DNA of 64,000 bases from Octopus vulgaris. Its lineage: Eukaryota. Numbering within the stretch: the first letter of the stretch is position 1; every line of letters begins with the position of its first letter. Where the stretch lies: contig OX597827.1 in the NCBI GenBank assembly GCA_951406725.2, positions 59,954,001 through 60,018,000 of the forward strand. Direction: 5' to 3'. Below the pieces are notes generated by a model. The model made no database searches and had not been told where the DNA came from. It saw only the letters and a list, made by a program, of their open reading frames with translations. This document shows, piece after piece, positions 6,329-61,391 of this stretch. A program made the translations under genes and the position numbers.

Positions 6329-7074
6329 AGTGTGTGAATGTATATATGTATGTGTGTAAGTATGTATATATGTATATCGATACTACCCCCTCACCACCGT
6401 TATATGTCCATTGTTTATTGGTATCTGCATGAAAGAGAATGAAAGCCACATTCAAAACATTCCCCAACGCCCTGCACTCCACCTTGTGAAATTTAATTTG
6501 ATAAACAGTGATGTATTCATCAAAGAATGTTTAAAGACAGGCCATCACTGCTGCCACGACTACTGCTATTACTACTAGTGGCAACATTACCACCACAACT
6601 ACTGTGCTACTGATGTTACTGCAACAACAACTACTACTACTACTACTACAACTACTAAGAATAAGAAGATGGAGGAGAAGAAGAAGAAGAAGAAGAAGGA
6701 GAAGAAAAAGGGAAAGAAGAAGAAGAAGAAGAAGAAGAAGAAGAAGAAGAAGAAGAAGAAGATGATGATGATGATGGTGATGAGGATGATGATGATGATG
6801 ATGACGACAACGACGACAACTTTGAAGAAGAAGAAGAAGAAGAAGAAGAAGAAGAAGAAGAAGAAGAAGAAGAAGAAGAAGAAGAAGAAGAAGAAGATGA
6901 TGATGATGAATGAAGAAGAAGAAGAAGAAGAAGAAGAAGAAGAAGAAGAAGAAGAAGAAGAAGAAGAAGAAGAAGAAGAAGAAGAAGAAGAAGAAGAAAT
7001 GAACAAATGACTGAATGGTAATGATAATAATTTGCCTGTTCGGGACAAGATCATCAAGCAGGGAAGAGCCAAGA

Positions 7075-12740: not shown

Positions 12741-13145
12741 CTAGCAGTATCGCCCGGCGTATATATTTATATATATATATATATATATATATAGTTTTTT
12801 AGAGCTTGTTACTGTTATATCCAAAAACTAGCAAAAAATGCATTAAAAATGGAAAAAAAATGATGGTAAATTTTTTCTTAAATCGTTGATTCATCGTAGA
12901 CATTTTTAGAGAGTTACTTCCCTTATATAATAGCGAAAAAAATGCATTAAAATGGAAAAAAATGATGGTAAATTTTTTTTAAATCGTAGACTCATCGTAG
13001 ACGCGCGCTAATACCCAGAAGGGCTCGATATGAATCACGACTATAAGATATCCGGTTTTGGTTAAACTGCACCGCAAAATGCGGGAGTAGTTAGGAATCT
13101 AAATCGTAGGAGACAGACACACAACTTCTCTTTTATATATAAAGA
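12741..13145 (-). mobile_element. Non-autonomous Helitron (same family as 53561-53961), interrupted by (AT)n
   Basis: Near-identical reverse complement of 53561-53961, with TC and CTAG termini. Confidence 0.8.
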
Positions 13146-13711: not shown

Positions 13712-14325
13712 ATATATGGGTACAGGACATGAAAAAGAAGTTGAACACAATGAGAAACGAAAATATAAAAACAAAAACATAGAAACGAACTTTTTTTCGG
13801 ACAACGAAAAAACAGTGAAACGAGACATACAACATAAAGAATATCCCCCTTCTTCAGTTGTCCCTGTTTCAACTACACGTTTCGAAGGTAAGGACAAGAC
13901 ACGACTTCGTTGAAACAGTCCTTCCTGCAAAGCAAGTTAAATAAAATTTGGGGTTTTTTGCGGAGGGTGAAAGTGGTAACAAGAGCAGGAGAGTGAGAAC
14001 AAAACAGTAAAAACAATAAAAAAAGTAAAAACAGTAAAAGACAGAACAATGAGAACAAAACAGTACAAACAAACGATGAGGGCTGTTAAGCCAAGACGAT
14101 GGAAAAATTATTCTGAACGCTTAGGAAGACGAGCTTATGAAGAGACAGGATAAGCCCGTTTAGTCTTTGTGAAGGTAGTAGTCAGAAAGATAGATTCCCT
14201 CTTGTCACGTGTCAGCAACGAGAGAGTCGAGGAGGAGGAGGAGGAGTAAGAGAGAGTGAACGGTGAAGGAGAGAGGAGAAGAATAGAGAAGGGTGGGAGA
14301 GAAAACCAGAAAGGATTAAGAACCT
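13712..14325 (-). mobile_element. ORF-less retrozyme/Penelope-like element A with permuted hammerhead
   Basis: Flanked by (TA)n. CT-rich 5' region, GTCACGTG at 14204-14211, ribozyme at 13851-13924, U-rich 3' region ending tgtcctgtaccc (similar ends at 32420 and 43750). Boundaries approximate. Confidence 0.55.
13851..13924 (-). ncRNA. Non-circularly permuted (pseudoknotted) hammerhead, family A
   Basis: GAAGG-a-CUGUUUCAAC-gaagu-CGUGU-C-UUGUCC-uua-CCUUC-GAA-ACGUG-ua-GUUGAAACAG-GGACAA-CUGAAGA. Stem II 5 bp, extra helix 10 bp, stem III 5 bp (2 GU), stem I 6 bp, GUC site. Confidence 0.8.
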
Positions 14326-34198: not shown

Positions 34199-34785
34199 AG
34201 GTGGCGAGCTGACAGAATTTTTTCGCAGGCCGGAAGAAATGCTGAGCAGAATTTCGTCCGTCTTTACGTTCTGAGTTCAATTTCCGCCGAGGTCGACTTT
34301 GCCTTTCATCCTTTCGGGGTCGATAAATTAAGTACCAGTTACGCACTGGGGTCGATGTAATCGACTTAATCCCTTTGTCTGTCCTTGTTTGTCTCCCCTA
34401 TGTTTAGTCTCTTGTGAGCAGTAAAGAAATAAGAATTTCGTCTGTCTTTACGTTCTGAGTTCAAATGCTGTCGAGGTCGACTTTGCCTTTCATCCTTCGG
34501 GGTCGATAAATTAAGTACCAGTTACGCACTGGGGTCGATGTAATCGACTTAATCCCTTTGTCTGTCCTTGTTTGTCTCCCCTATGTTTAGCCTCTTGTGA
34601 GCAGTAAAGAAATAAGAATTTCGTCTGTCTTTACGTTCTAAGTTCAAATGCTGTCGAGGCCCATTTTACTTTTCATCGTTTTGGGGTCGATAAAATAATT
34701 ACCAGTTGAGCACTGGGTTCGATGTAGTCCACTATCCCCTACACCTAATTTTCAGGTCTTGTACATATAGTGGAAATGATTATTG
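34199..34785 (+). mobile_element. SINE S2 array with two internal units of about 184 bp ending in a Tx1-like tail
   Basis: Junction agaatttcgtc at 34248, 34432 and 34615. Confidence 0.85.
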
Positions 34786-38139: not shown

Positions 38140-38717
38140 GGCAGAAACGTTAGCACGTCGGACGAAATACTTCGCGGTATTTTTAGTCTGTCTTTATGTT
38201 CTGAGTTCAAATTGCGCCGAGGTCGACTTTGCCTTTCATCCTTTCGGGGTCTATAAATCAAATACCAGTTACGCACTGGGGCCGATGTAATCGACTTAAT
38301 ACCTATGTCTGTCCTTGTTTGTCCCCTCTGCGTTTAGCCCCTTGTGGGCAATAAAGAAATAGGTATTTAGTCTGTCTTTATGTTCTGAGTTCAAATTGCG
38401 CCGAGGTCGACTTTGCCTTTCATCCTTTCGGGGTCGATAAATTAGGTACCAGTTTACGCACTGGGGTCGATATAATCGACTTAATCCGTTTGTCTCTCCT
38501 TGTTTGTCCTCTCTGTGTTTAGCCCCTTGTGGGTAGTAAAGAAATAGGTATTTCGTCGGTCCTTACGTTCAGAGTTCAAATTCCGCCGGGCTCGACTTTA
38601 CCCTTCATCCTTTCGGGATTCAATAAATTAAGCACCAGTTGCGTAGTGCGATAGATCTAATCAACTGGCCCCCACCCCTAAAAATTTCGGGCCTTGTAAC
38701 TAGAGTAGAAAGCAATA
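38140..38717 (+). mobile_element. SINE S2 array with two internal units of about 185 bp ending in a Tx1-like tail
   Basis: Junction ggtattt at 38176, 38362 and 38547. Confidence 0.85.
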
Positions 38718-43066: not shown

Positions 43067-43586
43067 TAATTGAACGCCACACATTCATTTCCAAGTAAGT
43101 TTCTCTTCACCTTTTTGATGCGATTCTCTACTCTATATTGTTTTCTTCTTCCATCCGTCTCTAATTCCCTTTTCTCCCCCTCCCCCCTTCACTGTTTTCC
43201 ATCTCTCTCCCCTCTTTCTCTTTTCCACTCTTTCTCTCTGTTTCTCTCTCTCTCTCACTCTCTCGTTGCTGACACGTGACCAGCGTCCATCTTTCCTGCA
43301 CGGACGTTCAAGAGAACGGACGTGTTTTTTTTGTTTTTCTCTCTCTCTTTTATCTTTTCTCTTTTTAAAATAATGTTTCTCACAGCCTTCACTATTTCCC
43401 TCTCGTTCTGGCCTAACGACACTCTATGTTTGTTTACTTTCGGTTTCCTTGTTCAGGTCACTGCTTGGAATCGAACTCGGAATCTTGGGATTAGTAGCCT
43501 GCCGTCTTAACCACTAAATAATGATTAATAACGATAACATCGAAAAATACCTTAGGAATGCGAACCCAGGTTCGAAATTTCCCCAA

Positions 43587-43632
43587 GACACCTGAAGAAG
43601 GCTGGAGGATATTTCAGCCGAAACGTTGTGCT
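43587..43632 (+). ncRNA. Minimal type I hammerhead with a stem I mismatch
   Basis: GACAC-CUGAAGA-A-GGCUGGA(ggauau)UUCAGCC-GAAAC-GUU-GUGcU; AACGUU palindrome. Confidence 0.65.
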
Positions 43633-51799: not shown

Positions 51800-51846
<47 letters not shown>

Positions 51847-51934
51847 GGTATGTAGAAAAATACAACATGGACAAGAACGTATAACTCTTAGAAGACGACA
51901 CAATAAACACGGACAGGACATTCGAAACCCTCAG

Positions 51935-52007
51935 TCTTCAGTCAAGAACCGGATCATCGTAGTAATTTCGGCTGATTAATCTTGAGATTACTAGATCACG
52001 GCCAGCC
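51935..52007 (-). ncRNA. Non-circularly permuted hammerhead, family C copy 1
   Basis: GGCUGG-CCG(u)GAUC-UAGUAAU-C-UCAAGA-uuaa-UCAGCC-GAA-AUUACUA-cgau-GAUCCGG-u-UCUUGA-CUGAAGA; AUC site. Confidence 0.8.
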
Positions 52008-52777
52008 CTCCAAGAAAAACCAAGCAACGAGCATTAGAAAAACTAAGCTGGAAGCGTAGATTTCCTGGAAGAAGGATCGAATGCATACGAACACCAGGAC
52101 AGCAAAAGGGACAGATATAAAAAAACAAAAAACAATAATGGAATACAGAAACATGAAATACAGAAGCATTAACGGTGAAAACAACGGTGTCTTACGACTG
52201 ATAACAAGCAAACAAATTTTTTCTCTGGCGCAATGGAAAAAGCCTTTATAGTGGCGGACGAAAACAGCGATGTTAACAGAACGAGGGTCAGAGGCTGAAA
52301 GGCAGATTTCGGCCAACAGTCACGTGACAGAGAAGAGGGAAAAGAAAAGAAAGAGAAGCAAAGGAAGAGAGAGAGAGAGGAGGGACAAACGCAACAAAGA
52401 GAGAGAAGAGAGAGAAAGAAGGAATCAGAGAGGAGAAGGGATGGGTGTCGAAGAATGACCTGTGAGTGCAGAGCGAGACAAAGAAATAGGAGGGTAGTGG
52501 AAGACTAGACCAAAGAATCAGAGGAAAGAGAAGAGAAAAAGAGGATGAGTGGAGAGAAAAGAGAGAGAGGGGGACAGATCAAGTAAAAATGAGAGAGAGA
52601 GAGAGACAAACAGAGAGTCGTACCAATTATTAAGAATATGTGCTCACATAAATGTTAAGGGGGTACGGGGCGCCTGGAATATATGTTAAGGTATGTAGAA
52701 AAATACAACATGGACAAGAACGTATAACTCTTAGAAGACGACACAATAAACACGGACAGGACATTCGAAACCCTCAG

Positions 52778-52850
52778 TCTTCAGTCAAGAACCGGATCAT
52801 CGTAGTAATTTCGGCTGATTAATCTTGAGATTACTAGATCACGGCCAGCC
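52778..52850 (-). ncRNA. Non-circularly permuted hammerhead, family C copy 2
   Basis: Same sequence as 51935-52007, offset by 843. Confidence 0.8.
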
Positions 52851-53525
52851 CTCCAAGAAAAACCAAGCAACGAGCATTAGAAAAACTAAGCTGGAAGCGT
52901 AGATTTCCTGGAAGAAGGATCGAATGCATACGAACACCAGGACAGCAAAAGGGACAGATATAAAAAAACAAAAAACAATAATGGAATACAGAAACATGAA
53001 ATACAGAAGCATTAACGGTGAAAACAACGGTGTCTTACGACTGATAACAAGCAAACAAATTTTTTCTCTGGCGCAATGGAAAAAGCCTTTATAGTGGCGG
53101 ACGAAAACAGCGATGTTAACAGAACGAGGGTCAGAGGCTGAAAGGCAGATTTCGGCCAACAGTCACGTGACAGAGAAGAGGGAAAAGAAAAGAAAGAGAA
53201 GCAAAGGAAGAGAGAGAGAGAGGAGGGACAAACGCAACAAAGAGAGAGAAGAGAGAGAAAGAAGGAATCAGAGAGGAGAAGGGATGGGTGTCGAAGAATG
53301 ACCTGTGAGTGCAGAGCGAGACAAAGAAATAGGAGGGTAGTGGAAGACTAGACCAAAGAATCAGAGGAAAGAGAAGAGAAAAAGAGGATGAGTGGAGAGA
53401 AAAGAGAGAGAGGGGGACAGATCAAGTAAAAATGAGAGAGAGAGAGAGACATACGCACATTGTGTGAATGATTGATGTTTATATAGGTATGCATATGGTA
53501 TGCATGTGTTTATATAGTTATGCAA

Positions 53526-53563: not shown

Positions 53564-53961
53564 TTATATATAAAAGTGAGGTTGTGCGCTGTCTATCTCC
53601 TACGATTTAGATTCCTAACTACTCCCACATTTTGCGGTGCAGTTTAACCAAAACCGGGTATCTTATAGTCGTGATTCATATCGAACCCTTCTGGGTATTA
53701 ACGCGCGTCTACGATGAGTCTACGATTTAAAAAAAAATTACCATCATTTTTTTCCATTTTAATGCATTTTTTTCGCTATTATATAAGGGAAGTAACTCTC
53801 TAAAAATGTCTACAATGAGTCAACGATTTTTAAAAAAATTTACCGTCATTTTTTTTCCATTTTTAATGCATCTTTTTGCTATTTTTTGGCTATAACTCTC
53901 TAAAAATGCTTATATAGTTATTTCCCTTACAAACCCGAGCAACGCCGGGCGATACTGCTAG
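53561..53961 (+). mobile_element. Non-autonomous Helitron, complete
   Basis: A|TCTTTATATATAAAAG...CCCGAGCAACGCCGGG hairpin...CTAG|T; inserted in (TA)n with no TSD. Confidence 0.85.
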
Positions 53962-55465: not shown

Positions 55466-55650
55466 TGGAAGCGCAATGCCCCAGTGGTTAGGGCAGCGGA
55501 ATCGCGGTTGCAAGAACGCGGTTTCGATTCCCAGACCACGCACTGTGAGTGTTTATTAAGCAAAAACACCTAAGCCTCACGAGGTTCTGGCGGGTGGTAG
55601 TGAAACCCGCTGTACTCTTTCACCACAACTTTCTCTCACTCTTTCTTCCT
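55466..55650 (+). mobile_element. SINE S3, 5' part
   Basis: gtggaagcgcaatgccccagtggttagggcagcgg...ggtttcgattcc. Confidence 0.8.
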
Positions 55651-57460: not shown

Positions 57461-57533
57461 TCCTCAGTCGAGTTCCAGATTATCCTTGCAATTTCGGCTG
57501 GTTATACTCGAGATTGCTCCAATCTGGCCAGTC
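57461..57533 (-). ncRNA. Non-circularly permuted hammerhead, family E
   Basis: GaCUGG-CCAGAUU-gga-GCAAU-C-UCGAGU-auaa-CCAGCC-GAA-AUUGC-aaggau-AAUCUGG-a-ACUCGA-CUGAGGA; lies in a (TA)n-flanked fragment at about 57380-57552. Confidence 0.8.
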
Positions 57534-61310: not shown

Positions 61311-61391
61311 TCATCAGTTATCAACCAGATGATATTACTCAGTTTCGCACCTTCAATGATAAGACTGAGAACCTCCCATGCCGGCGGTGTC
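61311..61391 (-). ncRNA. Non-circularly permuted hammerhead, family F
   Basis: G(a)CACC-g-CCGG(c)AUG-ggagguu-CUCAGU-C-UUAUCA-uugaa-GGUGC-GAA-ACUGAG-uaauau-CAUCUGG-u-UGAUAA-CUGAUGA; GUC site; element at about 61165-61795. Confidence 0.75.

Follow-up and report, generated by a model that had tools for sequence, protein, structure and literature searches.

A non-coding 843-bp retroelement of Octopus vulgaris and its predicted hammerhead ribozyme with a detached stem II

A stretch of 64,000 nucleotides of the Octopus vulgaris genome (assembly GCA_951406725.2, contig OX597827.1, positions 59,954,001 to 60,018,000; hereafter the window) carries a recent insertion of 1.9 units of a non-coding retroelement with a unit of 843 bp. 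The element is likely copied by Penelope-like enzymes, and its units carry a predicted self-cleaving hammerhead ribozyme in which stem II is detached from the core segment CUGAnGA; taken as a whole, we consider this reading probable. The tandem itself is ordinary for its family, and the novel part is the wiring of the ribozyme.

The insertion and its family

Comparison of the window with itself reveals an exact run of 766 nt at an offset of 843 (51843-52608 matching 52686-53451), while at the other offsets from 835 to 851 the longest exact run is only 14 nt. The insertion at 51843-53451 on the minus strand thus measures 1609 bp (843 + 766), or 1.91 units, which agrees with the identical partial tandem of about 1.9 units described in the initial annotation. 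Its 3' unit (51843-52685) is complete, with the fixed 3' end at 51843 joined to a (TA)n target microsatellite (51803-51842, unstranded) in which a separate target duplication is not distinguishable. The upstream unit (52686-53451, unit positions 78-843) lacks its first 77 nt and is identical to the full unit. At the head-to-tail junction (52679-52691, minus strand) the RNA continues past the fixed element end into a short run of alternating A and U; this putative internal priming site could form pairs with (TA)n target DNA once that has been nicked. Stop-free stretches in six frames of the tripled unit reach 56-111 codons at the longest and are mostly of low complexity, so the unit holds no real open reading frame, as had also been annotated. 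An Rfam search of the window at the gathering score returned no matches, and the output of general repeat finders on the window was dominated by microsatellites.

The family is abundant and strikingly uniform. An exact pattern search for a 28-mer of the ribozyme gave 933 matches in the genome, against none for the reversed sequence used as a control, and a 271-nt query of the unit gave 1,300 first-look candidates, with all 40 that were scored 100% identical. Sixty loci were fetched from among 100 places listed, comprising all 49 on one contig (C1) and the first 11 on a second (C2). The elements stop at unit position 837-843 beside TA repeats at 58 of them, as read from the rows, and the 5' ends vary between loci; 5' ends that seemed to gather at unit 440-483 were set aside, several of them being alignment breaks in diverged subfamilies. 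More than one unit is present at 24 of the 60, and these tandems have 5' ends and haplotypes of their own. Together with the 28-mer counts and the presence of at least half of the unit's sampled words in 19 public runs (20 holders, from 8 studies), they make it exceedingly improbable that the window's tandem is an artefact of assembly, even though its two copies are 100% identical over 766 nt and no long read was seen to span the locus.

Divergence between units was compared over 441 non-repetitive positions in 25 arrays. Units within an array differ at 12 of 13,961 compared sites (0.09%), and units of different arrays at 7,036 of 530,637 (1.33%). The rare allele that the window carries at unit position 500 recurs in 22 copies at 10 loci, 8 of which are arrays of 2-4 units. 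Identity across copies, uniform arrays and the shared haplotype together mark the locus as one recent insertion of a young, active, high-copy, non-coding retroelement family, upholding the recent insertion first proposed. The fixed 3' end in (TA)n, the variable 5' ends and the partial tandems likewise match what had been suggested of a Penelope or retrozyme type. The view of this locus as the best candidate for an active RNA is not supported: two complete ribozymes are found at 14 of the 49 C1 loci (hand count), and the window insertion is ordinary within its family, one of many able to release a monomer. Inverted pieces have been described for Penelope-like insertions. In related copies at C1:4429231-4429339 and C1:6003677-6003784 an inverted piece is joined within a few bases of the cut site.

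Layout and covariation of the predicted ribozyme

Each unit carries on its minus strand, in this order, AUC, stem I, GAAA, stem III and CUGAAGA. The core letters of a hammerhead (CUGAnGA, GAAA and NUH) are therefore all present, and the order of blocks, S-G-C, is that of cut site, GAAA and CUGAnGA, named type SGC among six published permutations (Eckert et al., 2023; PMC10085705). The linker from stem I to stem II is 4 nt long in the window copies and a further helix joins the other two ends, as expected of that type. Under the rule set out in the same paper, CUGAnGA stays joined to stem II with at most 1-2 inserted nucleotides. In the 843-bp unit the 5' strand of stem II lies upstream of the cut and not after CUGAnGA, so the block rule behind the six published permutations is broken. 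An intact block C, with stem II at most 2 nt after CUGAnGA, is found in 0 of 25 representatives. The permuted ribozyme of the initial annotation is accordingly retained as to its S-G-C order, but it is no plain published permutation.

As read from sequence and covariation, the first copy (51935-52007, minus strand) runs from the 5' strand of stem II (52007-52002) through the 5' strand of the interaction helix (52001-51994) to the cut-site block, made up of the stem III 5' strand with AUC (51993-51986) and stem I (51985-51980). The GAAA block follows, with the stem II 3' strand (51975-51970), GAAA (51969-51966) and the stem III 3' strand (51965-51960), and then the 3' strand of the interaction helix (51955-51949), stem I (51947-51942) and CUGAAGA (51941-51935). 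The second copy (52778-52850, minus strand) is identical and complete. The nucleotide C17, after which the cut is predicted, falls at 52829 and 51986, the two positions given in the annotation. This form, here called core-opened, can probably be derived from the CSG/SGC class by circular permutation, with the opening placed between A9 and G10.1.

Relatives of the ribozyme allow the pairing to be examined. Three other, older families in the window carry predicted core-opened hammerheads on the minus strand: family B (57461-57533, C17 at 57512; 2,828 first-look genome candidates), family C (61311-61390, C17 at 61363; 988) and family D (13851-13924, C17 at 13898; 5,510). In these and in their genome copies the partner of the strand before GAAA lies 20-27 nt upstream of the cut, and stem II pairs GGCUG with CAGCC, GCACC with GGUGC and GAAGG with CCUUC. 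The 25 representatives comprise five families and 20 loci chosen by eye for diversity from the first 100 rows matching a general motif, which has 18,521 matches genome-wide and 929 in the reversed search (some loci counted twice). A strict descriptor scan matched 5 sites in the window and none in 400 kb of evenly picked genome; BLAST found one family B copy in the same 400 kb. The upstream stem II helix, with at least 4 of 5 Watson-Crick pairs, forms in 23 of the 25 representatives, all 23 with G-C as the first pair (G10.1-C11.1). When partners were swapped among 11 distinct stems the observed score was reached once in 100,000 (p = 1e-5), and the four-helix model paired 86.8% of cells in an alignment of 15 relatives, against 77.9% after shuffling, with 0 of 500 shuffles as high; representatives and rows are related, so these values overstate independence and are not strict probabilities. 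The alignment was built on sequence only. Both-sided changes occur at 15 of the model's 24 pairs, among them 4 of 6 in stem I, 3 of 6 in stem II, 4 of 5 in stem III and 4 of 7 in the interaction helix, which is paired in 86.5% of cells. Stem II alone pairs in 77.8%; two misregistered rows and two broken copies bring this figure down. All 15 rows agree in CUGAnGA, GAAA and C11.1, letters that the search pattern required.

The same comparison bears on whether the motif is an ordinary type-SGC hammerhead with stem II placed right after CUGAnGA. The 843-bp family alone does allow a 4-bp pairing downstream of CUGAAGA, leaving two unpaired C before GAAA, but across the relatives this register pairs 55% of cells, no better than shuffles. 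The directly adjacent register pairs 25% and is formed by 0 of the 25 representatives; any register within 9 nt downstream is formed by 6. Both downstream registers were rejected, and an ordinary type-SGC fold is very improbable.

The predicted fold is probably a closed cage in which a kink-turn-like loop connects stem III and the interaction helix. A kink-turn has as its consensus a 3-nt bulge followed by tandem G-A pairs, and by eye a 3-nt bulge with tandem G-A stands between stem III and this fourth helix in 13 of 15 rows of the A/B group. All three helices are joined at both ends by linkers of 0-4 nt, which would be hard to close as a monomer and which lends some weight to an unlikely alternative, a strand-swapped dimer, with the cut-site and GAAA blocks supplied by one copy and with CUGAnGA and the 5' strand of stem II coming from the next unit or from a separate RNA. 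The D group is without an obvious kink, and small Penelope hammerheads have been reported to cleave as dimers. A kink at this loop could permit the monomer to close, and retention of the loop in 13 of the 15 aligned A/B relatives and in the tail of an octopus Naiad, Naiad_Ovul (see below), argues against the dimer, as does the direct link between interaction helix and stem III in some type-SGC ribozymes (PMC10085705).

Several motifs near or resembling the ribozyme may be recorded here. Some 10 nt beyond CUGAnGA the A/B group keeps a word CGAAUG almost without change (in the window at 51919-51924 and 52762-52767 on the minus strand), which may be the remnant of a GAAA block or a site recognised by a protein. 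At 43560-43632 on the plus strand another repeat family holds a canonical minimal type I hammerhead that matches the 843-bp family in the sequence of stem II and has a second hairpin and GAAA just upstream of its CUGAAGA; it has relatives at loci L067 and L099, and an evolutionary link to the ribozyme of the 843-bp family is possible. L024:504-613 holds a further, different S-G-C candidate, more tightly spaced and with an additional CUGAAGA upstream. A loose match to the S-G-C descriptor at 55534 (minus strand) is probably due to chance; its spacer is very long and stem II would find no space.

The predicted cut and the proposed cycle

If reverse transcription begins 143 nt beyond the predicted cut, on its downstream side, cut RNA should leave shortened copies that begin at the cut. 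Such a step is present in the genome. Among 56 loci starting at or above the cut, 8 begin at unit 698-701 and 7 in the preceding 96 positions (p about 1e-9). Genome-wide, 161 junctions with (TA)n fall in a 23-nt window around the cut and 15 in an equal-sized window upstream of it. In the first 100 junctions listed, 11 retain sequence above the cut, 15 lie exactly at it and 74 lie 1-11 nt after it, and in the first 100 of 859 from the wider A/B group the corresponding numbers are 11, 23 and 66 (hand counts). Because shortened copies pile up at the predicted cut, the hammerhead likely cuts in the animal. A separate observation concerns the region of L262:4604, where a Naiad-tail copy starts at its own predicted cut after (TA)n, the one clear case of 20.

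The motif might instead be a non-catalytic structure or a relic, with 5' ends produced by stalling of the reverse transcriptase or by annealing through AT microhomology. Most junctions do fall in AT-rich sequence, 2-10 nt past the cut. Microhomology can account for this scatter but not for the step at the cut, which coincides with the predicted bond in the middle of the fold, and the invariant core (within the limits of the search pattern) and four covarying helices also speak for a ribozyme; a relic seems improbable.

The following cycle is proposed. An internal promoter in the upstream unit (putatively at 53088-53169, minus strand) would drive an RNA spanning both ribozymes. The candidate promoter contains an E-box-like word, CACGTGAC (53169-53162), a GC-box-like word at 53100 and a TATA-like word at 53093 that recurs at 52326, 52257 and 52250, all on the minus strand and all named by resemblance; families C and D share the E-box-like word, as do many copies of family B. 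Two cuts would free a monomer of 843 nt, from 52828 to 51986 (minus strand), the length first predicted from two ribozymes one unit apart, its end at the cut site being backed by the pile-up of 5' ends. Part of the monomer may be ligated into a circle. A Penelope-like reverse transcriptase with an endonuclease would nick (TA)n and initiate inside the RNA, 143 nt from the cut, with the target (TA)n pairing with the RNA at priming, a proposal that differs from what is reported for the element Poseidon (PMC11167929). On cut linear RNA synthesis would run off at the cut and yield stubs of 130-145 bp, and on a circle it could roll past the cut to give any number of identical units plus a fraction, as at the window locus.

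It is also possible, though doubtful, that the RNA is cut but never circularised, the arrays arising from uncut read-through of tandem sources or from template jumps between linear monomers. Uniform source arrays would give uniform arrays in turn. The array at L173 reaches the cut twice and ends there the second time, a pattern expected of a linear precursor that had been cut in part. Stops at the cut number 14 of 57 C1 loci on the first pass and 1 of 16 on the second (hand counts), too few to separate a circle from a linear precursor. Read-through copying could only keep or shorten arrays, so that a growth step would be needed, and a single haplotype is found in arrays of 1 to 4 matches; animal retrozymes, moreover, are described as accumulating as circles (PMC7229834). 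Copying on a circle is preferred.

Traces of the RNA were looked for in public data, and no RNA run was found among the listed holders of the unit's words. Four runs were guessed to be RNA. A contig from one of them, X1, is 873 nt long (843 + 30), extends across the junction between units and agrees with the allele of the window. A collapsed tandem would assemble into such a contig just as a circle would, and X1 could represent DNA or the source individual itself, so the contig carries no weight as to expression. Contigs of the other three have fewer than 31 letters on one side of the junction. One contig of run X1 ends in 21 T (plus strand) at 53065, about 28 nt downstream of the minus-strand TATA-like word.

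Other repeats of the window include two inverted copies of a 287-nt sequence, 95% alike (12833-13119 and 53590-53876, one of them 140 nt from the insertion), and tandems of 183-185 bp at 34248-34733 and 38182-38640.

Naiads, candidate mobilisers and known systems

Naiads are described as without canonical hammerheads by Craig et al. (2021), with eight marked HHR_half_core (PMC8557442). By eye, the tail of Naiad_Ovul, with the record preceding it, shows the same four-strand layout as the 843-bp unit; stem II there has 6 bp, and the loop is kink-turn-like. The two records that precede Naiad_Asuum and Naiad_Lpol, which by table order are nematode Naiad_Hpol and spider Naiad_Smim, hold complete type-CSG hammerheads with a long fourth helix. 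The record end before Naiad-4_Dst gave no clear fold, that before Naiad_Adux a partial one, and the Naiad_Omin record none (all by eye). The same layout in an octopus Naiad tail and CSG in two animal Naiads suggest that the core-opened form is likely a permuted CSG. If the two ends of CSG are joined and the molecule is opened after A9, the observed order results, so tandem duplication offers a simple origin, and the core-opened form may have arisen from CSG in this way. The 843-bp unit and the Naiad tail showed no sequence match beyond the core, and the fold is what the two have in common.

The fold-sharing Naiad was considered as the present mobiliser and rejected on a sample of 20 out of 232 tails. 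A motif of a published octopus Naiad has 232 exact matches in the genome, and the 20 tails sampled are decayed, 78-93% alike in their best matches and without a Naiad frame. An intact autonomous family has a 781-codon frame with reverse transcriptase and C-terminal GIY-YIG (six copies, 96.5-99.7% identical), a C-x4-CxxC linker, an end in (TA)n and, like the 843-bp unit, a short TA stretch after the end inside the RNA. This family is Neptune-like by the description in PMC8557442. The Neptune-like element (loci L161-L166 and L170) is apparently active, has a 479-codon upstream frame in two copies and shows only a degenerate hammerhead core near its 3' end.

Several results weigh against the reading favoured here, in addition to the relatedness of the aligned sequences and the decay of the sampled Naiad tails. 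The unit shows no sequence match to any of 20 GIY-YIG loci, the intact autonomous family included (148 matches listed, from 150 scored of 6,136 candidates). The nested folding energy of its ribozyme region is ordinary (z = 0.10), and two of the 25 representatives, L238 and L248, lack the upstream helix. On the non-bulged kink strand the 843-bp family reads UA, as opposed to GA in 13 of 15 aligned relatives, and a loop-E-like loop replaces the kink-turn-like one in the D group. AT microhomology with the target may yield part of the pile-up, at positions +5 to +10. For Poseidon, the one Penelope-like element studied in vitro in the work cited, insertion did not need cleavage (PMC11167929).

On balance we lean towards a wider interpretation, held somewhat less firmly than the account of the element itself. 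The ribozyme would be a seventh natural hammerhead wiring, opened between A9 and G10.1, with a kink-turn cage; it would be at work in a circular retrozyme of 843 nt that is now spreading, as well as in thousands of related copies, and would derive from CSG by tandem duplication, while Naiads in molluscs, spiders and nematodes would carry non-circularly permuted hammerheads. If so, the rule joining CUGAnGA to stem II is broken, searches for hammerheads miss a whole class, the range of non-circular permutations grows beyond environmental RNA to take in animal genomes, in very many copies, and the "half-core" Naiads are explained. The pile-up of 5' ends provides genomic evidence for cleavage of the transposition template in vivo by a Penelope-associated ribozyme, a question left open in the papers cited, and the young, uniform 843-bp family offers a clean substrate for testing it. 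No description of the core-opened wiring emerged from a literature search that did not extend to the bulk of subscription papers, to the supplements of PMC10085705 or to those of the preprint cited below.

Among the closest parallels are the animal non-long terminal repeat (non-LTR) retrozymes (Cervera and de la Pena, 2020; PMC7229834), which share with the 843-bp family non-coding tandem units, one hammerhead in each, at many loci. Retrozymes are proposed to mobilise via Penelope-like elements through circles (PMC7229834; Li, Clavereau and Pollet, 2026, bioRxiv 10.64898/2026.07.22.740005). The unit falls within the 51-972 bp range of the preprint but exceeds the 150-450 bp given as typical in PMC7229834. 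Animal retrozymes are defined by type I hammerheads, and a search made with these would miss the 843-bp family, with its S-G-C order and split stem II; judged from its sequence, the element would work like an animal non-LTR retrozyme but lacks the type I hammerhead. Its fixed 3' end, variable 5' end, partial tandems and microsatellite target are those of a non-autonomous Penelope-like element. The HHR_half_core Naiads (PMC8557442) share (TA)n targets and partial tandems, and Naiad_Ovul the core-opened layout of its tail, but Naiads encode protein whereas the unit has no frame. Anolis Poseidon (Frangieh et al., 2024; PMC11167929) likewise combines an internal start of reverse transcription, AT-rich targets and partial tandems; its own features are a canonical small hammerhead that needed protein to cut and a start site not homologous to the cut DNA, and no RNA ends were found at its cut. 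The ribozyme resembles the type-SGC and type-CSG hammerheads (PMC10085705) in the S-G-C order, the 3-4 nt link between stems I and II and the fourth helix joining their far ends. It differs in the broken link between CUGAnGA and stem II, the strand lying upstream, so that it would function like a type-SGC hammerhead but without an intact block C. The SGC and CSG examples given in that paper come from metatranscriptomes and metagenomes, none from the genome of a known organism, whereas here the form is present in thousands of copies in an animal genome.
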